From Nemertoderma westbladi (Eukaryota > Animalia > Xenacoelomorpha): DNA of 52,130 nt. Location: positions 1 through 52,130 of the forward strand of contig JAUCBJ010003209.1 of the NCBI GenBank assembly GCA_032718475.1. The letters run 5' to 3'. Shown in pieces: positions 4,431 to 51,398 of the stretch. Position 1 is the stretch's first letter. Every line of letters begins with the position of its first letter. A model generated the notes under the pieces. The model worked only from the letters and a program-made list of their open reading frames with translations. It was not told where the DNA came from and searched no databases. The position numbers and the translations under genes were made by a program.

Positions 4431-4552
4431 TTATTTGTGCTTTGCTTTTTTGGCACACATCGAAAATACACTTTGACACATCTTAAAATTTATTTTCAGA
4501 CATTCTATATTTGCGTGTGTTATTATTTATATCTTCATTATTTGCATTGCAG

Positions 4553-20066: not shown

Positions 20067-22953
20067 AATAATTTTTTTCTTCTGTCGGATCCAGACAAGT
20101 GATACCTACGTACAAACAAAAAATCAGACGTTTTTGTAAATATTTGTAGATTTTAGAGGGGGGGGGGGGGGGGGGGGTCAATATGACCCCCCCCCCCCCC
20201 CGGTATTTGTACAACATTTTATAGCCCGGTACTAATAGGGTTAAGACTTAAGAAAGTTAAAACCAAACAACCAACAACCGAAAACATTAACAAGGTTGAG
20301 AAAGCTAAGGACGATCTTAAATTGGCCTACAACATCAGCCAGGAAAAGTACATACAGGATAAAACTGAAGCAATTCCAACTGCTCACACACAGCAACAAT
20401 CAAGACTTACCTGGCAAACTGTAAATGAGGTATCTGGTCGGTAAAGTTGTGCAAAGGGGCGCCTCAAAGCCGATAGTCCTGAAGAACGTGTTGGGAAGTG
20501 GAAAAATCACTTCAGCAACTTGCTTGGGCAGCCACCAAACATCGAGGTCAGCCCTACAAGGAAAATATATGACAAGACACTACCTATAGAAACAGGGGAC
20601 TTCACACCTGCCGAACTCCAAAGAAGCATTAAAAGCATGTCCAATAATAAAGCGAGTGGATTGTTGATTGGAAAGCCAGCGGAGGTATGGAAAACCGGAG
20701 TGCTAAACAGACCATTATTGAATGTTTGCAACCGGATGTTAAAAGGGGAAAAGCCACCACCAATTTGGACTAAAGGTCAACTAAAGCCTCTCCCCAAGAA
20801 AGGAGACATCGGCATACCAACAAACTATCGTGGGATCTGTCTGCTTGTGGTAGCTGCCAAAATATACAATAAAACGATTCTATATAGGATTAGGCCTCAC
20901 ATAGAGAAACTACTGCGTAAGAGCCAAAACGGATTTCGACCAAGTAGATCAACAATAGCTCAGATACTTGCACTACGGAGACTGATTGAAGGAATTAAGT
21001 CAAAGAATCTCCCCGCAGTCATGATTTTTGTGGACTTCAAGAAGGCATTCGACTCCATCCATAGAGGTAAAATGCTTGAAATCCTAAGAGCTTATGGAAT
21101 ACCAGAAGTAATTGTTGCTGGCATTGGATTGTTATATTGTGACACAGAAGCGCAGGTACTCTCACCAGATGGTGAAACTGAGTTTTTCTCAATCCTGGCT
21201 GACGTACTGCAAGGTGACACATTAGCACCATTACTATTTGTAATTGTGCTGGATTACGCAATGAGGACGGCCACAAAGGGTGAAGATCTGGGATTCACAC
21301 TTCAAGAATGCAGAAGTAGTAGATATCCGGCAACTACAGTCACAGACACAGACTTTGCGGATGACATCGCCCTGCTCTCTAATACGCTAGCAGATGCACA
21401 GCTTCTACTAAATAAAGTGGAGAGGGCTGCTAAGGAGGTTGGATTGCATATAAATGCTACAAAGACCGAATTCATGACCTTTAATGTTGATGGAAACTTG
21501 ACAACCATTGATAATAATCAACTAAGGAAGGTCCATGACTTCCAGTACCTTGGATCATGGATAGAGAGTAGCAAAAAGGACATAGAAGTTAGGAAAGCAA
21601 AGGCTTGGGTAGCTCTATCAAAAAATGATACCATCTGGAAATCAGATCTCTCCAGGCACCTGAAGACTAAGTTCTTTCGAGCCACAGTGGAAAGTGTATT
21701 TTTATACGGGGGTGAGACCTGGACACTGACTAAATCACTTGAACAACGAATTGATAGTTGCTACACAAGACTACTAAGGGCAGCCCTAAACATCAGCTGG
21801 AGACAACACATGACAAACGCCGAGCTTTATGGTACAATACCACCTGTATCAACCATCCTCAGGTCATACCAGATCTACTTCTCTGGCAACCAACTCATGG
21901 AAAGCGTAGTCATGGACGACCGGCCATAACATATATAGATCAACTTGAAATGGATACTGAACTTGGGAGAAACGAAATTGCGACAACTATGGAGAATCGG
22001 GAAGCCTGTAAGGATCTCATTTCCACTGTCCGAGTTCGCTCGACCTAGTAGTAGTAGTACATTGGAGCTGCATATTGAGATGATATGTTGGCTTAATGAA
22101 ACATTTGTGCCACTACCATGCGAGCCACAATTTGCATACTGCAATGCCGCTTGCATTAAGAATGTTGTGCCGGCTTGTTGACATAATTGCGCCGCCATAA
22201 CTCCCTCACTAATAACTTTGCGAGATCAACCGCATCTTCAAGGCCAGTGTCCTTTAAGAGGCATATCAAGAATTCATGGACTTTCCACCATGCTTATTCA
22301 CTCCATGAGGCCGCCAAAGCACAATATTATGCACTAGTTGGTCTTCAAGGCTAAAGCAATGTCCTGCTAAGCGGAGGCGGTTCCGTTCAAGTGACAAGCT
22401 AGGGGAGACTAATGAGACACCTCCAATGTTACATAGTGTCTGGTTAGAGATGTGTACTTGACACCGTGAACCCGATGTAGCATTCTTGTGAATGTGCCAT
22501 CCATACACCATGTCCTGGAATATAGTATCATTATTCAGGTACATGCCCCCCCCCCCCAAATTTTTCTACAAATCTTAATGAGATTGCATGAAATTTGAAA
22601 CAGAGATAGTTTTACCTCCCTCCTTCTCCGTGGGTGAGCCATAATTATTATTTTTGCTTTCAATCTTTAGCTACAAGTGTTTGAAAAATGTGTCTCCGGC
22701 GATATTTCACAGGCCACAGTGCAATCATTCTTCAACCTTATGGTGACCAATAGAAAGCTGCTCATGCAAGGATCCAAATATGAAAAAATATTTGAATTTG
22801 GTTGGGAAACACCTGAGATATGGGCATTCGAATGTTGCATGTATTTGCTTCCCCTGCAGGCCACCTATTCTATTTAATTAATGTACCATATTCTAGAACA
22901 TTTTGTTTATTCCATAGGTAGAGGAGCAACGCAATAATGCAATACTTCTTTAA

Positions 22954-28067: not shown

Positions 28068-29923
28068 GCTATTCATAAATAAACAAAATGTTCTAGAATA
28101 TGGTATTTTTATTTAATAGAATAAAATAGCCTCATGCAGATGCAAAACCATGCAACATTTGAACGCTCAAATCTCAGTTATTTCCCAACCAAATTCAGAT
28201 TATGTTACATTTATGGAATCCTTACATGGTCAACTTTCCATCAGTACCAACAAATAACTATAAGGTTGAAGAATAACTGGAGAGTAACTGGTGAAATATC
28301 ACAGGAGACACCTTTTTTAAACGCTTGTAGCTAAAGATTGAACGCAAAAATAAAAATTCTGGCTCACCCACGGAGGAGAAGGGAGGTGAAACTATCTCTG
28401 TTTCAAATTTCATGCAATCTCATTAAGATTTGTAGAAAAATTTGGGGGGGGGGGGGCGTGTACCTGAATAACGACACTATGTTCCAGGACATGGTGTATA
28501 TTTGGTGTCTTCAGCAGTTAGAGCGCAGCATGGTCTCCCATATAGGGGAGTATTGGTTCTACTCAATACTTTTTAGGGTATTTTTAGGATTAATATTTGA
28601 AATTTCTACAGCTTTTAGTCTGATTCGAACCCGCGCCACAAACACTATTAACAAACAACTATTGTGTAAGCAGATCAAGCGCCGTATCCACTCGGACACT
28701 GCGACACTATATACTATATATTTAACAGGGAAATTAGTTCAAAAGTAAAAAGTCATGTAATCATCGATAGTTTAGCCAGGGAGAAAAATATGTCGAAATA
28801 TTGTGAGATGTGACGTTTACGTTAATATTATCATGTACATGATGTTCTGTATAATACGTCCAAGAAAGAGCGCTCTTACAAAACCGATTGTGCGTGATGT
28901 AAAGTGCAGCACAAGCAGCATATAAAGTAGAGTTTTTAGGGAAAGAGAGAAATGCCATATAATAATCCGCGCTAATATAATAATTGCATGTTAAATATCA
29001 ATATTACTGAGTTTGTATTTTATCGTATAATTCACATAAATCTGGCTTGTTTAGGTACCGGTAATGTAGTTGTTATTGTTGATAAACCTTATTAAAATAA
29101 ATGCAATCCGTCTCCAGAGTTGTACTGAAAGGGAACGTAACAATGGTGGCAGTAACTACATGCTAGCTAACGTTTATTACGACCAGATGTGACTCATTCG
29201 AACAATAATGGTCGCTTGTATGTATCGATCCAATTTCTACACAATTTTACTCTCGTCGTTGGTAGAATGGGAACAGTCTGTGAGTCGTAAAGCAAATAAT
29301 TTGTTTATTGCTTTGCGATTCTCATAAATGTATTATCATATTTATTTATAACTCTTTCTGAGATTTAACATTTCTAATGACTCATCATGACAATGCACAT
29401 CAATTATTTTATTTTATTTTTTGAACCATTTTATTCAGAAATTTAAATGTTATTCATAATTAATATTTTACCACACCACTTCAATATTAAAATTATTATT
29501 TAATACAATTATTCGTATTTTCTCTATTGTAATAAATATAATACAATAATATATTAAATTACAGTAAACTTGATTACATCTGCAGAATGTATCTCTAATA
29601 ATACGTGAGTTAAGTTCAATAGGTTGAGTTCAATAGGTTGAGTACAGTAGGTTGAGTCCAAGAGGTTGAGTTCAATAGGTTGAGTTCATTGGGTTGAGTT
29701 CAATAGGTTGAGTTCAATAGGTTGAGTTCAATAGGTTGAGTTCATTGGGTTGAGTTCAATAGGTTGAGTTCAATAGGTTGAGTTCATTGGGTTGAGTTCA
29801 GTAGGTTGAGTTCAATAGGTTGAGTTCAATAGGTTGAGTTCAATAGGTTGAGTTCATTGGGTTGAGTTCATTGGGTTGAGTTCAAAAGGTTGACTTCATG
29901 GGGTTGAGTTCATTGGGTTGAGT

Positions 29924-31521
29924 CAGGGCCTTCATAAAATAACAGGCCTGGACACAGAGCTGCCCTCAAAAAAATAAGAGGCCAAGTAGGAAGTTTTCAA
30001 GAATAAAATCATAAAGGATTTACACAAATTGCCAATGGAGTTATGTTCTAGAACAAAAATAATTTAATATTTTATTAAATACTTGTTGTGTGTTGTGAAA
30101 TTTTGAAATTATGGTTAGACACTGCAGTGTCAATAACTGTGAAAGTGGGAGTCAGCGGAGTGCATTGAGAACTGTTTTTGCTCCACCAAAAAACGTCGAA
30201 AAGAGAAAGTTGTGGCAAGAGGCACTACGCGAAAATGGTGTAGTGACATTAACTGATAGTATGGGAGTTTGTGAGAACCCTTTCATTCCAAGTCATGTGA
30301 TTGGAACAGGGCAAAGAAAGCGCCTTCATAGAGATGCAACACCGTTTTCGTGCCGGGGTAATGTGGGAGCAAGCTCAAATTCATTTGCATCAACTGCAGA
30401 GAAGAGAAGACTTGTAAATGAGGGTGAAAGACTAGATGCGGAGATCAGAGAGTTTTTGTCAAGTGACATAATAGTGTCCACATCTCAATTCGATGAGGGC
30501 GAACTATCTGAACCAAACAAGCTATTCTATAACTTAATCCAAAATAATGAAAATGTCGTTCATCTTTTCGGAGAGCATGGTGAAAGCGAAGCTGGTTCTT
30601 TAGTCAGTTTAGACAGCAATGGCATGGTGAAAGTTTTCGTTAACGGTAAGAAAATTACGTTGCCGGGGCACTTGACAAAATGGGAGAAGATATCTCGATA
30701 TAGTGAATTGAATAGTGTGTTAACCTTTGCCAAAGAAGTCGAATGGAATGAAATACATAATGCTACAATAGAAAGCGTTGTGAAAGACCTACAGGGACTT
30801 TCAGATGAGGTAGTTGATGAAAAGCAAAGTAAGTTATTTCGATTTTGCGCAGATCAAATTGAGTTAAGCTGCACTCCTCCAAATCGTCGCCGTTTTGGTA
30901 AACTAGCTGACTTATTGTGTTTCTCGGTGATTTTGCATGCAATTTCCGCTGCTGCTTATCGCGAACTGTCAGAGTTACTATATTAATGGTATTATAAAAA
31001 AAGTTAGCTTACTTTATAACGAAATGGCTTTATATATAGATAGATATAGATATATAGATAGATATAGATGTATAGGCTACTGTATATAGCTTACAGATAA
31101 CGAAAAATAGCCCTTACTTACCCGTTGCTAGGGCGAAAGTCATACCCGATATAGTGGGGTGGGTGTTGGTAACATAGCCCCAAACTTGTTAGTTCAGCCG
31201 TTGCTAAGGAGAAAATCTATGTTGCTATGGTAACTGACTTAAAAATGTGTCCATTAAACTCCCCATACACGATATAGTACTGATTTCTGTTGATCCAATG
31301 GCCACAAAGTTGTTTGTTTACCCATTGCTAAGGAGAAAGTCACTGTTGCTATGGTAACTGTGACTTAAAAATGTGTCCATTAAATTCCCCATACACGATA
31401 TAGTACTGATATGTGTTGGTCCCATGATCATAGAGTGAAATGAAGTAACACTTCCTACTTGGCCTCTTTATTTTTTTGAGGGCAGCTCTGTGTCCAGGCC
31501 TGTTATTTTATGAAGGCCCTG
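29924..31521 (+). mobile_element. Internally deleted P-element-like DNA transposon
   Basis: ~70-bp TIRs CAGGGCCTTCATAAAATAACAGG... (29924-29994, 31450-31521). 7-bp TSD GTTGAGT. Contains a THAP-domain ORF. Confidence 0.88.
30111..30986 (+). CDS. Truncated THAP-domain P-type transposase (N-terminal part only)
   Basis: MVRHCSVNNC...FAPP..EKRKLW...VCENPF...RLHRDATP THAP signature. Ends at ISAAAYREL with no DDE catalytic domain. Confidence 0.8.
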   Translation: MVRHCSVNNCESGSQRSALRTVFAPPKNVEKRKLWQEALRENGVVTLTDSMGVCENPFIPSHVIGTGQRKRLHRDATPFSCRGNVGASSNSFASTAEKRRLVNEGERLDAEIREFLSSDIIVSTSQFDEGELSEPNKLFYNLIQNNENVVHLFGEHGESEAGSLVSLDSNGMVKVFVNGKKITLPGHLTKWEKISRYSELNSVLTFAKEVEWNEIHNATIESVVKDLQGLSDEVVDEKQSKLFRFCADQIELSCTPPNRRRFGKLADLLCFSVILHAISAAAYRELSELLY

Positions 31522-32191
31522 GTTGAGTTCAATAAGTTGAGTTCAATAGGTTGAGTTCATTGGGTTGAGTTCAATAGGTTGAGTTCAATAGGTTGAGTTC
31601 AATAGGTTGAGTTCATTGGGTTGAGTTCAAAAGGTTGAGTTCATGGGGTTGAGTTCATTGGGTTGAGTTCAATAGGTTGAGTTCAATAGGTTGAGTTCAT
31701 TGGGTTGAGTTCATTGGGTTGAGTTCAATAGGTTGAGTTCAATAGGTTGAGTCCAATAGGTTGAGTTCATTGGGTTGAGTTCAGTGGATTGAGTTCATTG
31801 GGTTGAGTTCAATAGGGTTGAAATCAGTGAGTTGAAATCAGTGTGTGGAGATCAATAGGTTGAGTTCAATGGGTTGAGTTCTGTGGATTGAGTTCAATGG
31901 GTTTTAATCAGTGAGTGGAAATCAGTTGATTGAATTCAACGGGTTGAGTTCATTGGGTTGAAATCAGTGGTTTGAGTTAAGGACGTTTCTTTTAGTTTTA
32001 TTTCTATAGTAATTGAGTTAATTGTATATTTTTGAGGGAGTAGAGTAGGTAGTGTCTACTAGAGGTTCGAGTATCATAATAAGCGAGTAATTAAAACAAT
32101 TAAAACAAATTAAAAATCAATATAATTACTAAACATAACCCAAAGATAATGAAATTAATGAACCTCCTTGAGTAGCCCCTAGCGGAGGAGC

Positions 32192-33067
32192 ATGAGACCC
32201 TCGAGTGTGGACCGTCGGTATATGGGTGCCGGTAGGGAACCTCGCTACTGGCAGACTGCTGAGTACCACAGAGACCGCAATGAACCCAGGAGCTCCAGTC
32301 TGGACAGCCAGACTGCCGCGTCCCGTAGCGACACGGTACCGGTACTGCAACCTCCGAGACGGTACCAGTCATCCACCGAGAGTCGGACCTCCCGGAGTGT
32401 CCGAGTTCGCTCCCCCCGGACGGAATCCGTCGCCAATAATCCTTCCTTCAGACCCTCCAGTCCCGTGATTCTCCTAAACCATGGCAACAACAACCAACCC
32501 GAAACCATTCTATCCAACGGTACGCAACTAACCATTATTCGATCACCTGTAGTTAAAAACATAGTTAGCAGGAAAATTCAGACAACCACTGCAAAACACA
32601 CAATACCAATATCAAAGATTACAGATGCGACAATAGACTCTCTGAAAAATAATAACGGCGTGGCATTTAGTTCTCTTAACTGCGCAATAAACCAGCCACC
32701 CAAGTTGCAGATTCAGCTACCACCTGGAGTCAAACCGAAAGTAAATGTAGAACAGAAAATATATTTGAAAAACTTAGGAAACAATCCGAATTTCTCATCG
32801 AATAACGAATTTCTGAAAGTCAACTTGTCACAAAGGAAAACAAACTATTCGAATGATCAAGACTTTAAATCCATTCATAGCAACAATAAGATTACCCATG
32901 GATCTACGTGTAATGATAACTCTGATCGAAGAAAAGATAAACGTAATCACTCGGATATGGACGATGTTGTTAAATTAGGTTTATTAATAAGCTTTGTAGT
33001 CGCTGTTATATTTCATTTTGAACTTTTCAAGAGTTTTGCCTGCATGGTGTTCAAGTTGTTCTTTTAA
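32192..33067 (+). CDS. Orphan 291-aa ORF: Ser/Arg-rich N-terminus, hydrophobic C-terminal segment
   Basis: 876-bp open frame between AT-rich flanks. No recognisable domain. Confidence 0.35.
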   Translation: MRPSSVDRRYMGAGREPRYWQTAEYHRDRNEPRSSSLDSQTAASRSDTVPVLQPPRRYQSSTESRTSRSVRVRSPRTESVANNPSFRPSSPVILLNHGNNNQPETILSNGTQLTIIRSPVVKNIVSRKIQTTTAKHTIPISKITDATIDSLKNNNGVAFSSLNCAINQPPKLQIQLPPGVKPKVNVEQKIYLKNLGNNPNFSSNNEFLKVNLSQRKTNYSNDQDFKSIHSNNKITHGSTCNDNSDRRKDKRNHSDMDDVVKLGLLISFVVAVIFHFELFKSFACMVFKLFF

Positions 33068-33901: not shown

Positions 33902-34000
33902 TACGGTGGCCCACAACGGACAACACAAACCACAAAACGAATGCATAGTGTTCTATGGGGCATAAGTTGCTGTTGAATGCGCCGTGAAAGCCACGGCACT

Positions 34001-35190
34001 TGTAAAGGCTTTTGCGGAATTAGCTGGTTATTTTTCCCGCAAAGTACTCTGTAGGTGTTTTAACGGACATAAAAAGCCGTTTCCTTACTGTACCGGTGTT
34101 TTAGTGGACATCCATTTCTTCTGTATGTGTACTTTAGCGGACATAACTAGCGATTTTATGTCGCAATAAGCCAAAATCCTCTTGATACAGTGTAGTTACC
34201 ATGACGACATCTAACAGCTGATATGTACACGTGTAACTTTTCCTTTGTTTCTTTGTTCGGTCAACCAATCGGAACGATTCTCAGGTTATTTGGACAGAAA
34301 CCTCCGGGAAATCGCGCAATGCATTACGGTTTATGTTTACCTTTTTTCCTGATGCCAGAAGACCGGCTTTGGAATTTCTGTGTTTCAGGCTTTAGCCAAA
34401 CATTAGTAGGCTTTGATCATAGAAACGTATAACTGTTATCATATCACATCCTATCAAACGAATCACACTTGTCATATGGTCATATCTCATACAAACACCG
34501 CATTATTTTTACTGCTATTTACTTTACTTTATATTTACTTTATTAATTATATCAGTTGATGGAATATTATTATATTTGGATAATATCGATAAATAATCAT
34601 AAAACCCCAATCTTCTTGATATACTGAAGGTAAGAGACAGGTTACATAAAGCAATTGCGACTTACATTATATTGGTTTTGGAGTGAATCTAATGCTATTT
34701 CATAGGCACTACATGTGTCGGTTGCTGTTCTCTTTATATGTGACTAAAATTAGTGAAGGTCGGCAGATCGGTGTGCAGCATTGTGCGGTAGTGTGCATGA
34801 TTGTGACAGATAACAAAGCATCTCCTAAAGAATGCGCTTTATACGTGAATCATTAGCCATCCCGTTGTGTTTAGTGTAAGTCATAACTCTGTTTACATAC
34901 TTAGAGCGCCACGTCCTAAAGGAACTGTTGATATTTCCCGAAAGTGAATAATATTTGTCAGAGATTATATATTAACGATCAGTCGAATAATACAGTAGGC
35001 CTACACCGCAATAAGGTCAGAGCTTCCGAATCCAGTCTCCCGGGTATATCCAGCGGGTGAATGGTCGCGCATAGACTGGCTTCGGCTAATGTAGTGTATC
35101 AAATACTCGTCATAGGCTAAAGTCGATTTATAATCTAGAAGACACCTAAATTTGGCAGGTTAAACTGCTAAAGGTCTGAAAGCGCGAACA
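34001..35190 (+). repeat. 5' LTR of the BEL/Pao element (1190 bp)
   Basis: TGTAAAGG...GCGCGAACA, direct repeat of 49754-50932. Confidence 0.96.
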
Positions 35191-36782
35191 ATAACAGTTA
35201 TAATATTCTGATTGCAGTGTAGGCAATAAATATAGTTGTCTATTGTTCTGGTAAGAACAATAACAGTTATACCTTCTTTATTGCAGTAGGCAATAAAGAC
35301 GAAAAGTACCGGTCGACCGGTAATCAGTAGGCCTAAATACCTAAATACCCGAACCGGTACTTACAGCAGTACAGGTACATCAGTATTATTCGATTTTGAT
35401 AATTATATACCGGTAGGTCTTGATATTTAATCAGGGAGGGCCTGCCCTGGTTTTTTATTGGGATTTTACTTATTTCTGTCAGTTTTATTTATCTGTAAGT
35501 TAATATTGAGCAGAAGACGTGTAAGCCTGCTCAGATTGTACAGATAATTTGTAGGCTGGACTGTTGTCTGACTGTTGTTAAGTCTGAAGAGATTACAGTG
35601 TGTGTAGAGTGTATGTCCGATAAAGTACTAGTTAGGAAAGTGGGTGGCATCCAGTGCTGTAAGGTAAATCCCCCTGAAAGAATAAGTCGTACTACTCGGT
35701 TAGAACGCATACTAACTAACCATTTCGGAGTCTGCATATACTGTGGTTTATTTAGGTTTGATAGTAGTCTGCCAGCGTTTGGTCTGTATTTTGTTTGTGT
35801 AGTCTGTAAGGGTAGCGTAATATTTATTATTCAGAGTTTATGCGATTATTCGCAACAATCATACCCCATGTTTATTCCTACAGTAATTGTGCTTGTTATA
35901 TATACCGTTATAGTTAAATTAACCCCGGTACTACATCAGGGCTGTTTGGCATAGGTAAAGACTGGAGATTTTATGCTTTGGTCACTCCGGCAGATACCGT
36001 GGTTCCTTTAGCTGTACAAGTATTTTTAACTGCTGATTATTTGTTGTATAAGTACTTGTACCTAATTTAGGGTTTAGTGTACAGTGCTTTCCGAAGGTAA
36101 TTAGTGTGTAGGCAGTATATTTGTGTTGTAAAGTGGTTAATAGGCACGTTGGCTCTGGTAGGCCGCGGTAATTAACTTCTAGGTAGGAACACTCCGTGAT
36201 ACATAACGTAGTACTTATAGCGATACGGCTATAAGTCGTCAGACGGTGGTATTTTTCCTATCTGGACAACGCAGTATATTTACTACTGCTTTGTTATTTT
36301 CAAATACCGTAGTATCCTGTCTGTTTGTAATAACCAGATATTCTAACCCTTTGTTAGGCTGGTTTGTAGACTTCTTGTAAAATTACCCTAAAAATTCGTA
36401 CGTGTAATTTTTGTGTTTATTTAGAGATTGTAATCTCACCCCGAATTGTATGTAATTTGTAGTATTAAGTAACTTAGGCAAATTAGAATTATTTGTTTTA
36501 GTGTCCAACAAGTAGCACTTCACTGAGAGCGTACAGCTTCTGTGCAGTGACTCCTTCCCAGAAATAATAACATTTATTTCAAATATTGACAAAAACCCAT
36601 TAAACGAGTATATATATATTATAAATCAACTCAAACTGATTTATAAAATAGTAGGCCTGTCATACAACAATTAGGTCTTAATATCAGTTGGACTACTGCT
36701 TAAATAACGGTAATAAGGTAAAGTAAAGTAACCAAGTAACCCCCCTAAAATTCAGAAATTCAATTATTCTAAAATAATTGAC

Positions 36783-37392
36783 ATACCGGTATTTACAATA
36801 GGCTTATTATATTTATTTCTATAAATTTGAGCTGAAATTATATACCGGTATTCTGTAATTAATTCTAGTCTGTAATTATACTTATATATATACTATAAGT
36901 GTAAGCTGTATACCGGTATTCACGATAGGCTTATTATATATTTATATATTTGCGCTGAAATCATATACCGGTATTCTGTAATTAATTCTAGTCTGTAATT
37001 ATACTTATATATACTATAAGTGTAAGCTGTATACCGGTATTCACAATAGGTTTATTATATATTTATATATTTGCGCTGAAATTATATACCGGTATTCTGT
37101 AATTAATTCTAGTCTGTAATTATACTTATATATACTATAAGTGTAAGCTGTATACCGGTATTCACGATAGGCTTATTATATATTTATATATTTGCGCTGA
37201 AATTATATACCGGTATTCTGTAATTAATTCTAGTCTGTAATTATACTTATATATACTATAAGTGTAAGCTGTATACCGGTATTCACGATAGGCTTATTAT
37301 ATATTTATATATTTGCGCTGAAATTATATACCGGTATTCTGTGACAAACCTAGTCTGTAATAATACTTATATATACTATAAGTATATACTGG
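36783..37392. repeat. ~120-bp tandem repeat (~5 copies) in the BEL 5' leader
   Basis: tataccggtattctgtaattaattctagtctgtaattatac... recurs about every 120 bp, with two taccggta palindromes per unit. Confidence 0.9.
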
Positions 37393-37531
37393 TACTCTAA
37401 TATATTGTATATATATCATATTACATAGAGTAACGATATCGGTAATTAATTACTAGGCTAACAGTGATACTGAATTACTAGACTTGCTTTAACTGTAATA
37501 TAGCAGTAGGCATTCAACTGTACAAACAAAC

Positions 37532-40500
37532 ATGTCTGACACAAAGCAAAACCTGTCAGACAGTCTCCTAGATACAACCATCTGTGACCCAGACAGGAGT
37601 GTGGAACGTGTGAGACCGAAGTTCAACTCACCTCCTACTGTAAGAAAGATCATCCCTCCAGTAGTAGTATCAGACCCTAGGCTAGTCCAACACCGTAGGT
37701 CTATCATAGGCACTCGAGCTCGGGTCAAGCGGGACCAAGAGGCAGCTGTTGAACAGCAGCAACACTCGAGCCGAGAGCTTGTTTCTCAGCGGCCCTACAG
37801 CTCCAGTAGTGCGGATACTGTAGAGCTGACACCCGAGCGCGGAGCAAAGATGGCAGATGCGGTTTATTCGGACCCCCTTCTCATCCTTCCCGCAGCCGTA
37901 CTCACTAGGGTATTGATTGCGGTGGAGGAACACCAGATTGATTGGGCGAGAAGTAAGCGATCGACCAAGGATAGTTATGCGGGATACACAAGGGAAGAAT
38001 TGAAGTCTATTGTCGAGTCGCAATAGAACTTCCCCGGACCCGGACTCCCGTTTGGCTTATCGCAAGCTGCCTGGGAAGACATACACAGGATGGGAGTGAC
38101 AAAAGAAACCAGCGATCCAGCTGTGTGGAAGAGGTCAGCAGCAGGATACGTACATGGATTCTTCAGCTCTATGGAGCGATTAGAGGAACAACTGTTTCGA
38201 CAACCCCAAGGACCTCAAGAGCAGGGAGAGCTGCTTTATCAAGTTAGAGAAATAATTCTAAGAATCAGACTAATCTTATCGGCCTTTGAGGAGGCTTCGA
38301 AAAGAAGACAAGACACGTCGTTGCAAGTTGCCGTAAAGACTTGGTTTCAGCGGGTGAGTCTCAAAGTTCAAGGAACTGCCCAGTGGAAATCTCAGCTGGC
38401 TGAGCGCTCAACCCATGGAGAATCAACAGACGCTACCTTTTCCCAAGTGGAAAGTGAAGTGACAGCAGAGAAACCGCATAAGAGGGATGCTATTGACATC
38501 TATCTGTCAGACTATCAACGATTTCTAGGTGATGAAGAGTTGAGGAGACGGTTGTCTGGACTTCGCCCTAATAGTGAAGGAGCTAAGCTTGTGTTGGACG
38601 CAATAGATGCGGAAATGTTAGCTGCGAACCAAGCTAAATTTGATGAAAGACTCCGCATCGCTAGGGTCCAAGAAGAACAAGTCAAGAAAAAACGTATAGA
38701 AGACAGACAGCAGCAGCGGCAATGGCAGAGGCAGAAGTGGAAAGAAAAGCGGCAGAGGCAGCGGCAGAGGCAAAGGCGGCAGCGGCAGAGGCAAAAGCCG
38801 CAGCTGCAATAATAGAAGCGGAAAGAAAGCGAGCAGTGGCAGAAGCAGAACGAAGAGCATCTGAAAAGACCACCCAACTAGAGTTGGAAAATATTCAAGA
38901 GAATCAAGACTGCATAAATAAACAGTTAACAGCTAGTCAAATGCAGATGATGAGTCGATCTACTCCCAAAAGACAGGGATATACATCATCTGATGAAGGC
39001 GATACCACCGATCCTGAAGGCGGAGGAAATAGATCTCGTCCAAGCAGACATAGAAGAATGTCCCACCGTCAGAAATTGCCTGATTTGCCCCCAGCTGTTA
39101 GAAGGCAACTAACTAACACAGACTTAGGTAGTACAGAACCCACAGAACCCACAGACCAAATAATTAAAATAGAAAGACTCCCTACTATAGTAGATGAGCC
39201 TGAAATAATTAGGCCTGTTCTCGAAGCCACCCCTTCGGTGATAGAGACACCTGTACTCCCAGAACCTACCTCTAAATTCCCTTTGCACAGTACTAAACTA
39301 CCTATGCCCAGTAGGACTGTTCACGAGTCCGAACCCGTCCTGGACGCCGAGCAAGATATCAATAATTTATCGCCCGTTGTCTCTCGCTCGTCCGCTACTA
39401 CGTTGGCGACTCCCGCTTCGGCGGTCGAGTGGGTAGCAGAGGGACGACGGGAGATGGGTCTCCTGCTCGGGCAGTTGAGGGAACACCACAAGTGCTCCTC
39501 TCAGCAGGTCCGGGAGATGGAAGGATCTGTTCAGCAGTTCAAGGGCACAGTAAGGGAAAGTAGGTTAGAGTTGCAAGAGGTGCAGCAGAGTATCGCATTA
39601 GAACGCGACAAATTAGTAAATACCCAAAGGGGTATACCATCAACCCCGGTAACAATGTGTCAACCTGTTAGGTCTGAAGTATTTCATGCGCAAGGTGTGG
39701 AGCCTACACGCATCTATACTGCTAGTGAAGTAGAAACTCCTATAGTAAACCCTATTAAGGGTAATTATAAACCTGTTGACAATGATATTCCATATAGACC
39801 TGATATAGACCACTACAAGCCTATGCGGGAAGAACTAGAGTAGGTTGGTACATTACTGGCCCTCATGGAAAGGTTACCAAAAGAACGGGTATACCAAGTA
39901 AGTGAATGGGAAGCGGAGAGCAGTGAGGTAGACGACCCAACTGAGGGAACACCATACTCCTCAGATAATGACGACATCCACCAACTCTTCGACGAAGAGA
40001 ATACCATCGATCTCCTTACGGAAAACGAGACTTGGCAAAACCAAGTGAACCTATGTCAACTCATTCGTCCATCAGGACAAGTCGACTATAACGACGAACT
40101 GAATGACGTAGTAGAGCGCTATAACGCAAAGACTTGGGATGAACACGCCGTACGATTCTTTACTCAAGAGGCTGTAGAGCCCAATTCCTACGATAAGGCC
40201 CTATCGGTAGAAGAAGAAAGAGCCAAGCAGATCCAAGAGACAACTACACGTTTTCTTAAAGATCAAGGTAGATATGAAATCGGTCTACCATTCCGAAAGC
40301 GAGAACCAAAATTCATAAACAACCGACCCTTGGCGGAGAAAAGAATTGCTCAACTACATCGACGCCTTACGGCAAATGCTTCAGCTAAAGAAATGTATCA
40401 GACTCAGTTGAAGAAATTTATTAACAAGGGATATGTGGAACGAGTACCGGAAGAAACACCCATAACTGAGAGAACGTACTATTTAACACATCATTACGTT

Positions 40501-43500
40501 CCCAAACCCGGTAAACCCCATGAAGTACAGGTAGTATTTGACGGCTCCGCCCTCCACATGGGCCAATCCCTTAATTCCGAGTTGTTACCAGGACCCAACT
40601 TACTCCAATCCTTGTTGGGAATACTCTTAAGATTAAGACAATATTCAATCGCTTTCGCCTCCGATATAGAAGGCATGTTCTTACAAGTCAAGGCGGTGGA
40701 TAGGGATCGAGACAGCTTACAATTTCTGTGGTGGCCGGAAGGAGACCTCAATCAGAAACCGGTGGAGTATGGGATGACCATCCAGGCTTTTGGGATCATC
40801 TCAAGCCCTTCAAACGCCTGTTCAGTGGTGCGCACCACTGCTGATGACAACCGGGACGCCTTCTCTAAAGAGGTGATCGACAACATCAAACGGGATATAT
40901 ACATGGACAACAATTTAAAGTCCCTTCCATCAGTTCAAGAAGCCATTGATGTCGCCAAAGGAACGGTAGAGTTCTTAAAAAGAGGTGGATTTCGATTAAC
41001 TAAATTCACCAGCAACTCCCGTGAGTTTCTGGAATCTATCCCGGTAGAAGATCGAGGAGCGAAAGATCTAGACCTAATCAAAGACGATCTTCCAGAAACC
41101 AAGACACTTGGTTTGAAATGGGACACAGAGAGAGATATCCTGTTTTTCCAGCTAAAACAGCGAGATAATCCAGTTCGGACTAAACGGATTTGTTTAAGTA
41201 TCCTGAGCACTTATTTCGATCCATTGGGATTTATTAGCCCAGTTATATTGATTGCTCGGAGCTTAGTACAACAAATGTGGCTTGAAAACCATTCATGGGA
41301 CGATCCACTTAAGGGAGAACTATTAAAGAAGTGGATGAAATGGGAAGATTCTCTACCAGCCATCGAGAACTTTATAATTTTCCGTTCATATTTTGGTCAT
41401 GTTCTCCCTACGTATTCCTATCAACTCCATGTGTTTGGAGACGCCAGCGATATGGGAATAGGTATAGTAGCCTACCTGAGAGTGGAAACTCCGGATGGAA
41501 TCAAAGTCGCCTTGGTTACCTCTAAGGCATTGATAAACAACAAGTTGAAAGTTCCTCGAGCGGAGTTAAAAGCGGCTCTATACGCTACAGCCATCGGCCG
41601 GAATGTAACAGAACAGATCGAATATCCACTGGAGAAAACTGTCTATTGGACCGATGCTTTACTCGTGTTGGAGTATATAACCAATGAAGTCTGTCAGTTC
41701 AGTGTCTTCGTTACCAACAGAGTAGCCATTATACTTAGTCGCACGAAGATGGATCAATGGAGACATTGCCCCGGAACGATTAATCCAGCAGACATCGCCT
41801 CCAGGGGAGCAACTCCACAAGAACTGATAGATACTCCAGACTGGTTAGGTGGACCTGACTTCCTAAGCAAAGAAGAGGATGAATGGCCTCCTCATCTTAC
41901 TACGGCGGAGATTAGACAGGCCAAGGGAGCGGAGAAAGTCAAACCTAAAACTCGGGCGAGTAAATCGAAGTTATTTAAACCCGTGGTAGATCTGTCTGTA
42001 CTACATACTTCCGGAGACGACGCTTTGGATCCAAAACCCACAGCCACAAATAAGTCTGTTGTGGAAATCAGAGAGAAGGATTGGAAATCTGGAATACCAG
42101 ACGTCTCGCAAGGACTCTCACCTCTCCTGCAGAGAGCGATATATCACTACAGTTCCTGGAATCGGCTCTGTAAGGCCGTTACATATTTAAAGCGATGTTT
42201 TCATCATCACTACTCCAGGACGAAGACCAATAGTGATACCGCTCCACTGACATCTGTGCAGGTCCATGTTGTTAAAGATCTTCCCAAATATAAGATATCC
42301 GACAGGTTTCTGAAGGAGAAGATCAGTTATCAGGAGCATGAAGAAACCAATAAGCAGATGCTGAGACTCCTGCAATGCTATGAGGATTCCGATAAGTATT
42401 TCCTGTTGTTGAGAAATCCACAGATGCACTTAAGGGATCGTTTCTCTAGCACAATGATAGATGGGTTGATACGTGTTGGAGGAAGATTAACTAATGCTCC
42501 ATTATCCTTTGACACTAAGTTTCCCATACTCATTAGAAATCTTGAAATACAAATCAAGATGATTGTAGATGTTCACAGCAAACTTTACCATGCTGGTAGA
42601 GAACGAGTTCTTAGTGAAATTCGAACTCGCTATTATTTTTATAAACCCCGTAGAGCTCTGAACCAAGTTCTTAGGAACTGCATACCCTGTAGGAAAGCAT
42701 TCAGTAGGCCTTTAACACAGCGAGAGGCAGAATTACCTAGGGAACGAGTAAGCTTCTATGAACCACCCTTTACTAATACCGGTGTAGATTTATTTGGCCC
42801 TATTGAAGTATATCGTGCTAGGACTATAGTCAAGAGATGGTGTGTCATCTTTGTTTGTATGACTTGTAGGTAGAGCTATCCATCTAGATATGGTGAACGA
42901 TTTATCTACCAACAGCTTCCTATTGAGCTTACGACGAAAGATCGCTCGCTTTGGAACTAGTAACACGATGAGATCTGATAAGGGAACGAACTTCATTGGT
43001 GCCAACAATGAAATCAAGGCTTACGTCAAAGATTGGAACCAAAGACAGGTGGACGATCAGCTAAGGGTAACAGCATCTAGCTGGACCTTCAACGCCGCCG
43101 ACGCCCCTTGGTGGGGAGGAAGTTGGGAGAGATTAATCAGGAGCGTGAAGACCGCATTTCACTTTATAGTGCCGTGCCGCGCGTATCTCACCGACGAACT
43201 TTTGCGGACATTAATGGAGGAAATCGCCGCCTATCTCAACGAGAGACCGCTTATGCCAGTCTCATCGAGTCCCGATTCCCTGGAAGCACTAACACCCGCG
43301 CACTTCCTACTGAAGAAACCTGTAGCCATGCTCCCACGATCGGAAATCACAGACGGAGACGAATACTGCCGACAAACTTGGCAACTTATGCAGTTGTTAT
43401 CCCTTCGTTTCGCTGACCATTTCGAAAAACATTATCTGCCCACGCTACAACTTCGAACTAAGTGGTTTGCGCAGCAAGAAAACGTCAGCGCTGGAGACAT

Positions 43501-43789
43501 GGCCCTTATTGTGGATTCAGATCTTCCACATAAGCGGTGGCAGACAGGTCGTATCATCGAGACTCACATCTCGGATGATGGTTTGGTGCGATCGGTAGAT
43601 CTCGTCATCATGCGACGTAACTTTAAGAAACCGGGAATTGTCTTCGAGACACAGCAGCTCAATCGCCCAGTTGGCCGTTTATGTTTACTGGAAAGAGACC
43701 GAGAACTCTCCGGAAACTATGGAAGGCAAGATACTCTTCCCACGACCACCTCCCTGATCCAACAAACATCTAGGGACTCCCCAACGTAA
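37532..43789 (+). pseudogene. BEL/Pao gag-pol polyprotein, disrupted
   Basis: Same-frame stops at 38024-38026 and 39841-39843; frameshifts near 38700 and 42870. Motifs GRYEIGLPF, VVFDGS, LLPGPNL, DIEGMFLQV, YMDN, KTLGLKWD, FDPLG, LHVFGDAS, PRAEL, WTD, NPADIASRG, H..LYH...C..C, GVDLFGP, SDKGTNF, GGSWER. Confidence 0.93.
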
Positions 43790-45429
43790 CAGCGTCTGGA
43801 GTGGGTGTGTGACTATATGATTTCATATATTCTTATTATTTTATATTTATGTATGTATTATTATGTAATTTTATTATAATCGTTTTCTTTAATTTTATTT
43901 AGTAGAATGTTATTTTAGCGATTATTTAGTAGATTAGTGCAATATATATTAGTGTTTATTACTTAATTACTTATATATTATATATTTAGAGCAACGGCGA
44001 GAAATAATTCTTTTTCTCTTTCCTTACTGTCCGTATTACATTACAAATACGTAACTACAGTAAGATGAAATATCCGTACTTATTAAAGTACAATAAAGCT
44101 CCTACTATATTCAAGTATTATTGGTAAAGTAGAGTATTAGGAATGCAAAATTCAGATCCTCATGTCTCGGCTAAACCAAGCTCTGGGTAGACCTTGGAAA
44201 CGACTTGCCTCTTCTTACTGACATTGCTTCGTGCGATATTGCTCTCATACCGTATATTAAATAATACATATAGTAGCGTGATGTCCCTTTAACAGTAGCG
44301 CATAACGCAAAATAAATCTGTTAAACCCTTTGACCATCTGTAATTCTAGTCGATTAAGATATCGCGGCACCCACCGATATACTTGAAAAACAAAATTCTA
44401 GAATCAGTGGTTAATGTCCCCAGACATGTTCTGGAATAAACCGGTGCCCATCCTAAATATTAACTATTAATATTTATAAAATCTGTCAAATTTCAGATCC
44501 TTTAAAATTCTAGTCGATTAAGATATCGTAGCACTTACCGATACTCTTAAAAGACAAATTTCCTAGAATCAAGGATCCCAGTCCCCAGACATGTTCTGGA
44601 ATAAAATTATGTCTATTATAATATTAAATAATAAAATTTACGGGAATAAATGTAAATTCATCTTTTTAATGAATTTGATAAATTGTCATTTTATACAATT
44701 TATAACATTCCCAAAATTCCATTAATTAATAGATCATGGGATCATGGGAGATTCACCCTATTAAGTGTATTAGTGTGCGAGAATCTTCAATATATAGTCA
44801 ATAGCTGATAAAATTTATAAAATCATGTATAAAGGGGATATTGACAATTAAAGAATTACTATTAAATAGCATCCCAGATCTGTATGCATGAGAATTACCC
44901 TAATTCTACTGCTAGCTTTCCATAATGTCACCATAGCAACAACCACGCTAGAATTAGAAGTGAGTTAAAAGAACAATAGAAAGCTTACCCCATTGAATAG
45001 CATAGGGAATAAATAGCACACTGCTAGTATCCAAGGATACATAATAATAACGTGGCATTCTGGAAGGCACTTGACTAACGGACAAATGGCCCGAATGTGT
45101 ACAATTTGTGACAGTTGTGTGGAATTTGTGCATTTATAGGTGAATGTTACTACTAAAGTGTGTTTACAGTAGCGAGTCGCAATTGTGAAAGTAGCACTAA
45201 CTCTGCAGCAAGAACCTGAAGTAAATCTAAGCCTTTGGGACGGACAGTGGAGTGACTTGTGCCGGTTATCGTTGTCGTTGTGTAGCTACTACGTTGGCGA
45301 AAACACAGCGACGACGGTACATCGGCGCTGAGGTTCTTGCACTGTCCGGGGGCAGAGAGGGGTAGGCAGCGACGGCCGCTAGCCTAAATATAAACTCATT
45401 ATAATATTGAAAAAACTCATATAGCAGAT

Positions 45430-48400
45430 ATGACTGAGTTGATAGAAGATGATCTTGGTATCAGGGAGCGATATACTCTACCTTTACAAGCGTTTATTGA
45501 TAGCTTGATACGCGGCGACGCTGGTCCAACTACTACGGAGGACGATGGTCGTTATATCGAACCGCCAATGTCCCAGGAGCAACTTACGCGTGAATTGGAC
45601 TATAGAAAATTCACCGCTCGCTATACGCATCGTAATGGTACGTATATGGACTTCTTAACTACTGGCCATCCTATCGATTTACACGATACGGACGATGTAG
45701 ACACCGAAAGGGAAATGGTTTTATTTAAATATCATACCCAGCGGAGTCGGAACGATAAACCGAGAATAGAACACGAGAATTCTATTTGAAACAGACTCGA
45801 AAGGGAAGACGTTGAAGAGCCGGATAAACGCAGCGACTTCAACGATTATCTGGAATTCCTGAGAGAAACATATCTCAATATTGCCAGTCAACAAAATCTA
45901 GAAACTCGATATCCTCAAGATATACATCATGACCCTATGATAGAACTCAAACGACTCTATTTCACTATGATGTATCTTACCGCCGATCGACCGCTACCTG
46001 TCGTCCCCGATAGCTTCGAACAGATGGAGGAATATTGTAAAACTGGAGAACGATCACCCGCGTTTCCCCTGCAGGACGTGCGTCTTTGGTATTACTGCGA
46101 CGAATGCCCTAGACCCAATCAGCAAACGGAAAGACATAAACATCTGCAGAGACGTTGCGCTAAACACAGTTTTACACGATATACTTATGGGAGTTTCGAG
46201 CGAAACCTGTTCGACGTATCACCTACGCTCGCTCGACTCAAACGATCCTTAAATAAACCAATGATCAGAGTTCCGGAATACTCAGTCAGACCTCCTCATT
46301 CCTCAGTGAGACCTCAAACGCTTGATCCTAATAGTATAACGGATCCCCCTGAACTGTACTCGCTATTTAAAGATCTTGTGTTACCCGAACAATTAATCGG
46401 TGGCACTCCGGTAGTGGGCTCACTAGATATTCGCCAACCCTACCTAGCCGGATTAGGACGCGGTCATCTAATATCGCCGTTTAACCCGTACAACCGTCCA
46501 GGCTTAACCCCGATACAACCCGTTACCGAAGTCGAAGAGAGCGTTGTACGAAACGCGTTAGACGCTATTCGGCAGAAAATCGGAAAGGGAACTTACGATT
46601 GTTTAGAGAAACGCAAATTGCAGCAACAAGTCCAAGCGGTGAAAGAATTAGCTTTACCCCAGTTCGATAGAGAAATCCAGAATCTCGAGGAAGACATCGA
46701 ACGTGGACGAACCTGCTCTTTACAAGAGTTCCTAGACGAGCGTTTACAACAACAAGCGGAGGAAAATCAGCTCGAGGAGAAACACATAGAAATGGATGAG
46801 AGAGAAGAAGCAGCTTTAGCCCAGCCAGAAGCTCAAATTCTTATGACGGATCTCTATTCTAAAACCATCATCCATCCTTCGATGGTTCCCCACAAACTCT
46901 TCGCCACGGCACAGCCTCAACCGGTTGATATCAACCTAAGATCTCGAGATCTTATCGCTGACGCTCCCATGTTGCAACGTCCACCAATCGAGGCCGCTCG
47001 TGTCGATGGTATACTCGTTGAAACTCCGGACAATAGAGCGGATCTTGTCCGTCGTATGGTACACGATGTTAACATACGCGCTAGACCTTTACCGGACTCG
47101 TTTTATGGGATCAAAGATCACCCTTATTACGTCAATCTAACGCAATATTACATGGTAAAACCGGAAGATCCTACACATAGTCTGAGGTTTCTACCACTAA
47201 TAAATCCTCTCGATCTTGTCGAACTCGAACAACTGCAGAGACATCTGGATCAGTTAGTTAAAGTAAACTCATTTCGAAAACCCTATAATGTTTCCAGGAT
47301 AGAGAAAGAGACAATAGCTCCGTATAATCGTGATGGAATCATCAAAACTCGATTAGTACACTGGAATCTCGACGTGTTATTCGAGGAGGAAAGAATACAA
47401 CGATATGGAGATGTAGAGACATATACTACACAATATTTAAAGTATAGAGATCTACCTAATGCTAGCGAATGCGCTACCTTGTGGCATCCAGTGGGAATGA
47501 CTCTAGAAAACGCCACTAAAGAGTGGAATGAGACTCTTAACGTTATCGAGATGTATGGAGTTGTCACTTACGATAACGAAGGTAGCGTTCCGGTTGGAGA
47601 ACTGGGAACTACGCGAATGATACATATACGAGGACTAGCTGGTTCTACCCACGTATTTACTCGAGCGTGTTCCGATGTGATTGATTATTCTTTTGAGACC
47701 CTTACCGAGATACAAAAGAAACTCCGACATGGACAATTCGAACTCGCGCAGCGTTACGTCACCGACACCGAGCGCAAACCAGCCATGGGTATCGATGGAT
47801 CGATGTTACCCCAGCCCGTGCTCGAGATGTTGTTTAACGAAAGAATCCTTAAAATCGGCTCAGCTGTTTATGGAGATCTCCAAAACGACTTTCGGAACAT
47901 GGAGAACATTCCATACCCTTTCGTCGATACTCAGCTGATTGCTCCCTGGGCAGAAGGCCGAGGTTTCTTCCGCACTATGTATGCAAATACACCCAGCGGC
48001 ATTACTAAAGTACAACGAACCTCCATCGGACATCTTGCCTTTCAAGAATACGGATGGAATTTCAAGGTTGGAAATCCTATCAACTACCAACAAGTATATG
48101 GAGATCATTATTCTCGATTATACTTTGACGGACCATTGACCGCACCTGGCGCCGTGTATAGCTTTATGAGTGTTCCACTTCGTCCCTCCTTAGCTATATA
48201 CACGATCTTTGAAAACGCCGCACTTGCCGGTTGGCTAGCCGATGTGTGCAGTCGTACCATACGCGCCCATCCCTTAATACTTGGAACCAAACTCGCCAAG
48301 CTAGATGAACACAATAAATTCATCCGCTTCGAATGTTTCAGGCGCTTTCTGACTCCGTTCCGTAACGTTGATAGTCAGTTCAAGGACCGCGCTCTGACCA

Positions 48401-49675
48401 AACTCAGCCTAAGAGACTCAGCTGCGGAGAAGTTAGACAGCGCGGGATTCGCCCTTTTCAAGGACGTTTGTATACAGAACTTACATTCATCTGTTATACA
48501 AAGACCTCGAATACCCACGGGTTATTCTGTCGTGGAAGTTCAGACAGTGGGTTCGCTTGCGGAGACAGCCGCACCTATCTCAGCTATGCAATTGGAAGAC
48601 GAACCAATATGCTTAGAATCTGAGGAGATTCAGCCTACAGCGCCCCGGAGCAGCGATAACGACTACGTCTTGGAATGGTATCAAGGTCCACAATGTCTCA
48701 CCGCATACGATTATCGGCACGCCAACTATGTTTCTCGAAAACGTTGCCGATTATGCGCATCGAGAGATCATTTCACCCCTATGGACTCAGATCGTACCCT
48801 GCTCCTATTTCCATGAACAACCGATGATGGAGATCTATTGTGCGTATTGCAGACTCAATAACTCGCACATTTTTGCAGTCTGCCCCCAATTTATGACTCA
48901 ATGCCACCACTGTCAACTTAAAGGACATGCCAGTTTTAATTGCCCTTTTAACCGCGATCTGGAAAGCGTAGATGAGATGATTACCCTGCGCTACATCCGA
49001 GCTTGGGAAGCGAACGCGGATTTACATTGTGAGTCACGCCATCGCTATTACCCTGGACGCGCCTACGATGGAGTTTACGCGTTCCATCCTTATCTATTCG
49101 CGTCTGTTGAACAAAAAACACGCACACCGAGTTACGAACTAATGAAGCGTGTTGGTGAGTGTATTTCCACCAAATTTGTTCGAAAATATCTCAGGAACGT
49201 CAATCCTAACGATATTAATTCATACCATTTGATCAATTTCATCCGTCAAGACCCTGAGTATGGCGATTTATTTATCAACTCGCACCCTGAGTTACAGGAA
49301 GTATCTTGACAGCCCTACGAATATCGAGACCGAGAACGCGAGCTGGAAAGAACCATTAAACCGAGGAAGTTTCTCACCACTCACGGTCCACCTACCGCTA
49401 TTGTCCAGACGACTCGTCAGGGACCAGTAGGAGCTGCTGTCCTAAGACGCGCCCTAAAGGCCGTTAGACCTCGCTCCACTGAAGTTGATATTGATCAACC
49501 AGGTACCTTGACCGGCAGATACACCGATCGTAATCCTAAACCTACTGATGCAATTGTATTGCACCCTTCACCCAGGAGTTATAGCCCTCCTAGTAAAGTG
49601 GCTCGCCCCAAAGAGAAAAGGACTCTTGCTAGCCTCAAAAAACTGCGTAAACGCCGTCCGCGTAAGAAAGACTAA
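45430..49675 (+). pseudogene. Extra ORF of the BEL element (~1,400 codons): DEDDy-type 3'-5' exonuclease plus CCHC zinc knuckles
   Basis: 45430-45789 and 45937-48816 are one frame separated by a single TGA. Frameshift near 48780-48810; then 48728-49309 reads past one TGA to TAA at 49673-49675. Motifs VVTYDNEG, LPQPVLEMLFNERILKIGSAVYGDL, FVDTQ, SIGHLA, YTIFE; CAYCRLNNSHIFAVC, CHHCQLKGHASFNC. Confidence 0.78.
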
Positions 49676-49753
49676 CTGTTTAGAGTATTTTTATATTTTA
49701 GAAACTGTGATTTTTTATATTTTATAGAATTAAATCCCATTTTCTGGGAGCGG

Positions 49754-50932
49754 TGTAAAGGCTTTTGCGGAATTAGCTGGTTATTTTTCCCGCAAAGTAC
49801 TCTGTAGGTGTTTTAACGGACATAAAAAGCCGTTTCCTTACTGTACCGGTGTTTTAGTGGACATAAAAATCCATTTCTTCTGTATGTGTACTTTAGCGGA
49901 CATAACTAGCGATTTTATGTCGCAATAAGCCAAAATCCTCTTGATACAGTGTAGTTACCATGACGACATCTAATAGCTGATATGTACACGTGTAACTTTT
50001 CCTTTGTTTCTTTGTTCGGTCAACCAATCGGATCGATTCTCAGATTATTTGGACAGAAACCTCCGGGAAATCGCGCAATGCATTACGGTTTATGTTTACC
50101 TTTTTTCCTGATGCCAGAAGACCGGCTTTGGAATTTCTGTGTTTCAGGCTTTAGCCAAACATTAGTAGGCTTTGATCATAGAAACGTATAACTGTTATCA
50201 TATCACATCCTATCAAACGAATCACACTTGTCATATCTCATACAAACACCGCATTATTTTTACTGCTATTTACTGTCGGTTATTAATTATATCAGTTGAT
50301 GGAATATTATTATATTTGGATAATATCGATAAATAATCATAAAACCCCAATCTTCTTGATATACTGAAGGTAAGAGAGACCGGTTACATATAGCAATTGC
50401 GACTTACATTATATTGGTTTTGGAGTGAATCTAATGCTATTTCACAGGCACTACATGTGTCGGTTGCTGTTCTCTTTATATGTGACTAAAATTAGTGAAG
50501 GTCGGCAGATCGGTGTGCAGCATTGTGCGGTAGTGTGCAGGATTGTGACAGATAACAAAGCATCTCCTAAAGAATGCGCTTTATACGTGAATCATTAGCC
50601 ATCCCGTTGTGTTTAGTGTAAGTCATAACTCTGTTTACATACTTAGAGCGCCACGTCCTAAAGGAACTGTTGATATTTCCCGAAAGTGAATAATATTTGT
50701 CAGAGATTATATATTAACGATCAATCGAATAATACAGTAGGCCTACACCGCAATAAGGTCAGAGCTTCCGAATCCAGTCTCCCGGGTATATCCAGCGGGT
50801 GAATGGTCGCGCATAGACTGGCTTCGGCTAATGTAGTGTATCAAATACTCGTCATAGGCTAAAGTCGATTTATAATCTAGAAGACACCTAAATTTGGCAG
50901 GTTAAACTGCTAAAGGTCTGAAAGCGCGAACA
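49754..50932 (+). repeat. 3' LTR of the BEL/Pao element (1179 bp)
   Basis: Preceded by a short PPT gggagcgg (49746-49753) and followed by the TSD GCACT. Confidence 0.96.
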
Positions 50933-51316: not shown

Positions 51317-51398
51317 CGTGAGTTTTTTAATTTATGGCGGGTTGTTTGAATTTAAAACCTATTGTTTATGTTTAAAACCCTTAATACTTTCTGTATAG

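Follow-up and report, generated by a model that had tools for sequence, protein, structure and literature searches.

A candidate self-encoded primer in a damaged BEL/Pao retrotransposon of Nemertoderma westbladi and in its relatives

BEL/Pao retrotransposons are generally described as tRNA-primed, and the ICTV profile of Belpaoviridae accordingly gives an 18-nt primer-binding site (PBS) for tRNA-Arg or tRNA-Gly (PMC8742986). How, then, would such an element start minus-strand synthesis when the bases directly after its 5' long terminal repeat (LTR) pair with its own LTR? This question is raised by an element in a 52,130-nt stretch of Nemertoderma westbladi contig JAUCBJ010003209.1, forward strand (hereafter the window; all features below are on the + strand). 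An earlier note on this DNA had proposed that the element represents a tRNA-independent BEL lineage, and we examined that proposal in the window and among relatives of the element.

Element architecture and the post-LTR junction

The BEL/Pao element occupies positions 34001-50932 (16,932 bp) and is a damaged copy flanked by a 5-bp target-site duplication (TSD), with GCACT identical at 33996-34000 and 50933-50937. Alignment of both repeats placed a 1190-nt 5' LTR at 34001-35190 and a 1179-nt 3' LTR at 49754-50932, each beginning with TG and ending with CA, with 12 mismatches over 1171 aligned positions. This difference of about 1%, together with GCACT on both sides, points to a recent insertion of 16.9 kb. 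The element is inserted into a tandem array of a 32-bp repeat, which extends to either side of it (33980-34000 and 50933-51320). Neighboring features of the window (4487-5773, 16067-21929, and 29483-33067) are an amiloride-sensitive channel-like frame, pieces of a non-LTR endonuclease and reverse transcriptase (RT), and a THAP-domain frame flanked by two 14-bp tandem arrays. ARAGORN predicted no tRNA genes within the window.

Between its LTRs, the element carries a long leader with a 121-nt tandem repeat (family D6, 36764-37342), reading frames in three pieces at the gag position (37499-39843), a broken Pol of BEL/Pao type with RT, RNase H, and integrase (39844-43789), and an 8-nt purine-rich tract that adjoins the 3' LTR and is a candidate PPT (49746-49753). 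Pol matched PF05380 (E 7e-36), PF17921 (E 4e-7), and PF18701 (E 2e-19). The integrase contains a frame change and the RT motif is non-canonical, and stops and frame changes occur across the gag/pol region. Among the 120 Pol homologues listed out of 310, the closest were BEL/Pao proteins of marine invertebrates, fish, and schistosomes (33-43% identity), and PF05380 was present in all 120. We take these nearest homologues to be the Sinbad/Suzu-like BEL/Pao group. The gag-position frames had no informative Pfam match, and Pfam and motif searches there found no zinc knuckle or protease motif ahead of RT; the gag/protease region is either divergent or lost in this copy, a layout that is unusual, or deleted, for BEL/Pao.

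An extra reading frame, also in pieces, follows the integrase (45394-49675). A word search returned no homologue for it and HMMER a single weak match, between residues ~670-820 of its 1008-aa piece and protein P0121 (30% identity, E 4e-5), which itself has sub-threshold Pfam matches to a 3'-5' exonuclease and a zinc knuckle. The atlas lead for this frame was PF01612 (score 0.88), and two CCHC-like knuckles lie at 48863-48965. These weak leads suggest a possible 3'-5' exonuclease-like region with zinc knuckles. That its product could trim a primer end is only a lead.

Apart from the two repeats of this element, the window contains no copy of the LTR, and blastn found no match to it among 96 relative loci. 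Two DNA runs yielded 22,612 and 6,366 distinct contigs on the LTR and leader, a depth that is no copy number; thousands of distinct contigs nevertheless suggest a large and diverse family.

Directly 3' of the 5' LTR, with no spacer, lies ATAACAGTTATA (35191-35202), the first copy of the candidate PBS. The earlier note had described this site as lacking TGG and as having an exact complement in both LTRs, and both observations were confirmed: no TGG occurs within 57 nt of the LTR end, the nearest being at 35249, 58 nt away, and the exact reverse complement lies at 34428-34439 and again within the 3' LTR at 50187-50198. The segment at 34428-34439, which is contiguous and intron-free, is the candidate self-primer (hereafter the partner). 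A second copy of ATAACAGTTATA is found at 35260-35271, bringing the matches in the window to four, compared with a mean of 0.02 in 100 shuffles. The placement at the LTR boundary without a spacer was also borne out, with a match to the LTR that peaks at 12 nt exactly at offset 0 and measures 5-7 nt at offsets -6 to -1. Five of 14,534 interior positions have an LTR match of at least 12 nt; the two junction copies account for three of these, and one unrelated site (36719-36720, 13 nt) for the other two. By this interior background, a 12-nt match would fall within seven offsets of the LTR end by chance in approximately 0.1% of cases. The 12-mer is A/T at 10 of 12 positions, forming an AU-rich duplex of -11.4 kcal/mol, and its 11-nt core is a near-palindrome and hence, allowing one mismatch, a direct repeat as well. 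No spliced joint in the window LTR beat the contiguous match, even with any GT-AG pair allowed.

The junction itself is duplicated. As the earlier note had reported for 35255-35271, a 69-nt tandem duplication (35186-35323, 82% identical over 45 nt) contains the LTR end and PBS twice, and the second PBS copy extends to a 13-nt match (35260-35272). The note's pairing of 35241-35248 with the junction held as well, and the fold-back reaches farther, to 35231-35248 (~17 nt), an imperfect antisense of the junction that folding predicts to be a hairpin competitor of the LTR partner. In equilibrium folds, the partner pairs with PBS copy 2 (P 0.48-1.0 per base), and copy 1 has P of at most 0.14 with any partner; in a fold without the LTR partner, copy 2 pairs with 35231-35248. 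Since the 3' LTR ends at the equivalent of the first junction (35190), either the cDNA would have ended at copy 1 or the duplication would have arisen later. AATAAA follows in both duplicated units.

Related contigs carry other junctions. Three listed contigs of run X3 skip 35195-35272 and have 9-10 other letters instead, with a shorter side of only 22 letters, and two listed contigs of run X4 have a different loose end after the LTR. TGG was absent from all variant post-LTR sequences among the related contigs listed, and such differing TGG-less sequences argue against one fixed tRNA. The variant motifs had no other partner in the window LTR (6-7 nt).

Of the other signals in the window LTR, the best donor-like site (34876), the second-best (34630-34635, predicted with a rough donor matrix), and the only TATA-like hexamer (34966) all lie downstream of the partner, and neither AATAAA nor ATTAAA was found. 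An acceptor-like site is present at 35286, just 3' of PBS copy 2. Splicing to it from the strong donor-like sites at 34630 or 34876 would remove the PBS and leave a translation-only RNA. A GC-rich U5 helix (35065-35070 with 35182-35187) is predicted to close next to the PBS, with P of 0.8-1.0 at the three bases listed, and we take it to be reminiscent of the U5 stems in Tf1 and retroviruses.

Pairing and a predicted LTR intron among relatives

Relatives were collected with an alignment of 33 Pol sequences, which gave 80 of 535 confirmed metagenome-contig loci and 16 genome-contig loci; a search of viral contigs returned none. Loci L081-L096 are BEL/Pao elements, several of them full-length, in contigs filed as bacterial genomes, and are probably host-animal contamination. 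LTR ends could be assigned in 28 of these 96 loci. One of them, L034, was initially taken as TGG-type but turned out to be an assembly overlap within the RT frame and was removed. L012 and L020 carry a TGG site preceded by a T-rich spacer, and such sites were seen by eye in four more loci (L026, L040, L042, and L071). The spacers of L012, L020, L026, L040, and L042 are ~3-7 nt long, and the sites that follow presumably resemble the 3' end of tRNA-Tyr, not the tRNA-Arg or tRNA-Gly given by ICTV.

The other 25 relatives with set LTR ends have no TGG site. Their contiguous matches to their own LTR are mostly 5-9 nt long (11 in L024) and start after a pyrimidine tract and AG. When the bases 5' of an upstream GTRAG-type donor were joined to the bases that follow the AG, the matches grew to 10-15 perfect pairs, and for this reason we adopted a splice-acceptor reading of the T-rich-AG context and dropped the idea of an initiator motif at the 5' end of the RNA. 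At least 10 pairs with the own LTR were found in 22 of the 25 TGG-less relatives. L025 has 12 pairs after correction of its LTR end, L044 has 10 with its 5' LTR, and in L082 the pairing covers 11 positions, one of them mismatched in both LTRs; L030 was recovered after the acceptor filter had been relaxed to require 11 pyrimidines in 20 instead of 12.

When families were reduced to single representatives, 18 of 19, including the window, had at least 10 perfect pairs with their own LTR. Among the related TGG-less families, 17 of 18 have 10-15 such pairs. The partner spans a predicted LTR intron in 15 representatives and is contiguous in three (the window, L004, and L028). In five representatives (L004, L018, L023, L060, and L087), a CA chosen by eye defined the 5' LTR end, which is partly circular, and L027 and L081 end at the contig end; the other twelve representatives were fixed by paired LTRs, and L025 and L095 were excluded for uncertain ends. 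Pairing was specific to the family: at least 10 pairs occurred in 8 of 342 cross-pairs (six of the eight inside the L002/L007/L055 trio) and in 2 of 570 shuffled sites, and the TGG-bearing L012 and L020 match their own LTR over only 5 nt. In the remaining loci, non-coding regions were scanned blind, and 8 of 53 gave matches, versus 1 of 53 on the opposite strand; many of these regions contain no LTR, and three of the 8 matches repeat or closely follow families already counted. Compensatory change across related BEL families, which the earlier note had suggested looking for, was found in four sister pairs, with both sides changed and pairing kept at two positions each in L074/L076 and L084/L089 and at one position each in L007/L055 and L060/L082. 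The relatives that provide this compensatory evidence share only ~40% identity in Pol with the window element.

Predicted splice sites were ranked with an approximate scoring matrix in 21 elements that had been pre-chosen with a motif filter. When every GT-AG combination was admitted, the donor behind the longest match was the top-ranked one in 16 of 21 and one of rank 2-4 in three; in the other two it was a poor site, whose match exceeded that of the canonical pair by 1 nt. The acceptor ranked first in 10 of 21 and within the top nine in all 21. The 3' end of the partner is A-pyrimidine in 19 of 21, as it is in the window partner (34428-34439). In 18 of 21, a poly(A) hexamer is present downstream of the acceptor. 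In 3 of 14 relatives, the donor is preceded by a TATA-like box at a distance of 52-224 nt. The paired segment starts 0-5 nt after the LTR end, the same place as the TGG-type sites.

Phylogenetic analysis placed the TGG elements in one supported clade (SH-aLRT 98-99), separate from the self-pairing relatives, and priming state changes once on the unrooted IQ-TREE tree without an outgroup. The first IQ-TREE tree covered 52 of 117 rows, and the second tree and the constrained search covered 30; the FastTree tree still labels L034 as TGG-type. The window element sits on a long branch, beside the TGG clade in FastTree and outside it in two IQ-TREE runs, and constraining it into that clade gave a log-likelihood 26.6 higher than a quick free search (p-AU 0.92). 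It is unstable in these trees and may adjoin the tRNA-primed clade. The relatives' evidence applies to the window element by analogy of anatomy, not by proven close descent. Intron-free partners (the window, L004, and L025/L028) fall on separate branches, which fits repeated loss or gain of the intron. As a proposal about the lineage, tRNA independence is well supported by the relatives, in which pairing is family-specific and changes on both sides; for the window element itself, its support is the exact match at offset 0 and three TGG-less post-LTR sequences from contigs.

A candidate self-priming mechanism and its alternatives

The site lies where minus-strand synthesis starts, replaces a tRNA site, and matches only its own LTR, which makes self-priming the best reading. 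We consider it likely that an LTR-derived RNA primes minus-strand synthesis in the window element in a Tf1-like manner, using a contiguous partner, and our confidence is higher for self-priming in the intron-bearing relatives; both judgments are drawn from sequence. In Tf1, bases 1-11 anneal to the PBS, and RNase H cleaves directly behind them (PMC7175516). In the window element, an RNA starting at or upstream of 34428 would anneal its partner segment to the PBS, probably helped by a chaperone; it would act either in cis, by folding back on itself, or in trans, as a short transcript of the LTR alone. As in Tf1, this RNA would then be cut immediately beyond the duplex, after 34439, by RNase H or another nuclease, and RT would extend the cut end through U5 and R. 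Plus-strand synthesis would copy the primer back into the PBS, so that the match would be kept perfect. Because this copy is broken, the enzymes would be supplied in trans.

Most relatives would build the partner by splicing out the LTR intron. The intron is kept in both DNA LTRs, so the 3' LTR template would stay unspliced, and the primer would therefore come from the spliced 5' copy or from a separate short LTR-only spliced RNA acting in trans. The full partner in relatives mostly spans the predicted splice joint, and an RNA start at 34428 is not what they suggest. A joint reading, which as a whole we neither favor nor disfavor, is that much of the marine BEL/Pao radiation encodes its own primer, built by the spliceosome through removal of the LTR intron and possibly acting as a separate short spliced RNA in trans on the unspliced genome. 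Intron-free forms such as this giant lineage with its orphan ORF would then be derived or parallel, and tRNA priming in the sister clade may be a later acquisition.

The pairing might instead be real and selected but serve something other than priming, such as dimerization through the near-palindromic core, a switch between translation and packaging, or, in relatives, guidance that keeps the two splice sites together; something else would then act as primer. Such roles would suit the near-palindromic core in the window, the palindromic cores of several relatives, the competing hairpin at 35231-35248, and equilibrium folding, in which the cis duplex dominates the spliced leader of only 7 of 21 relatives. 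However, the paired segment always lies at the position of the TGG-type sites, within 0-5 nt of the LTR end, it replaces a TGG site rather than accompanying one, and matches of up to 15 nt reach well past the palindromic core, and we judge a purely non-priming role unlikely. Slightly less probable still, in our assessment, is priming at 35191 by a host tRNA half, a tRNA fragment, or a small host RNA, with the LTR match being incidental. Part of the partner (34428-34439) presumably resembles the anticodon loop of tRNA-Asn, which would favor a host RNA, and half-tRNA priming exists in Copia lineages according to the available text of PMC6317226. Against this, post-LTR sequences vary among the related contigs and across all relatives, each matching only its own LTR, and the site in the window is A/T at 10 of 12 positions.

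We give the lowest probability to a family that is primed by tRNA and has lost its PBS, or had it overwritten, in the window copy, the 12-nt match being a product of chance or of local template switching. The copy is indeed broken, with a rearranged and duplicated junction, its grouping with the TGG clade was not rejected (p-AU 0.92), and one unrelated 13-nt interior match exists. However, the chance rate is ~0.1% for the seven-offset window, the variant junctions among the related contigs listed also lack TGG, and the LTRs differ by ~1% with an intact TSD, which suggests that RNA with the window's junction was recently reverse transcribed. Self-priming from the LTR remains our preferred explanation for the element.

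Comparison with known priming systems

A self-encoded primer in BEL/Pao, if true, would extend self-priming to a third LTR superfamily, beyond Gypsy and Copia. A splice-completed primer, if true, would link initiation of reverse transcription to host splicing, a point of control that we did not find described. Self-priming would also explain how such elements might escape PBS-dependent LTR finders. Additionally, because both priming states occur within one BEL/Pao group, these elements bear on the proposal that hairpin priming is ancestral to tRNA priming, in which, by its available text, BEL/Pao was not modeled (PMC3601003). Our literature search found no report of self-priming or a splice-joint primer for BEL/Pao, although subscription papers, Repbase/GyDB, and supplements may mention one. 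The available text of the Sinbad paper has no occurrence of PBS or tRNA (PMC554778), and that of a BEL/Pao survey has none of primer, PBS, tRNA, intron, or splic (PMC3118150).

The closest parallels are elements with a PBS complementary to their own RNA over ~11 nt, no tRNA site, and a primer released by RNase H cleavage, which the available texts describe for Tf1/Tf2 of Schizosaccharomyces pombe, the Tf1/sushi group, and Tcn1 (PMC7175516, PMC6317226). The window element resembles the Tf1/sushi group in having a PBS complementary to its own LTR sequence, but its Pol is of BEL/Pao type and not that of a Ty3/gypsy chromovirus, so it is not a member. Most of its relatives differ further from the Tf1 group in that the full partner spans a predicted splice joint, and we found no description of such a partner for any element. 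In the TAR lineage of Ty1/copia (Houba and Osr-1), self-priming is likewise predicted from complementarity between PBS and LTR; in contrast to the elements described here, this lineage belongs to the plant Copia superfamily, and a splice-joint partner is absent from the available part of its account (PMC6317226).

Replication of BEL/Pao elements is called poorly understood by ICTV (PMC8742986). The window element agrees with Belpaoviridae and Semotivirus in its RT-RNase H-integrase order, PF05380 and PF18701 domains, LTRs within 0.2-1.2 kb, 8-nt purine tract, and 5-bp TSD. It differs in that no PBS for tRNA-Arg or tRNA-Gly follows its LTR, in its length of 16,932 bp compared with genomes of 4.2-10 kb in the profile (PMC8742986), and in its extra 3' frame, and the canonical Gag knuckle and protease motif were not found ahead of its RT. 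By its Pol sequence, the window element is a BEL/Pao-type lineage, but not a typical semotivirus.
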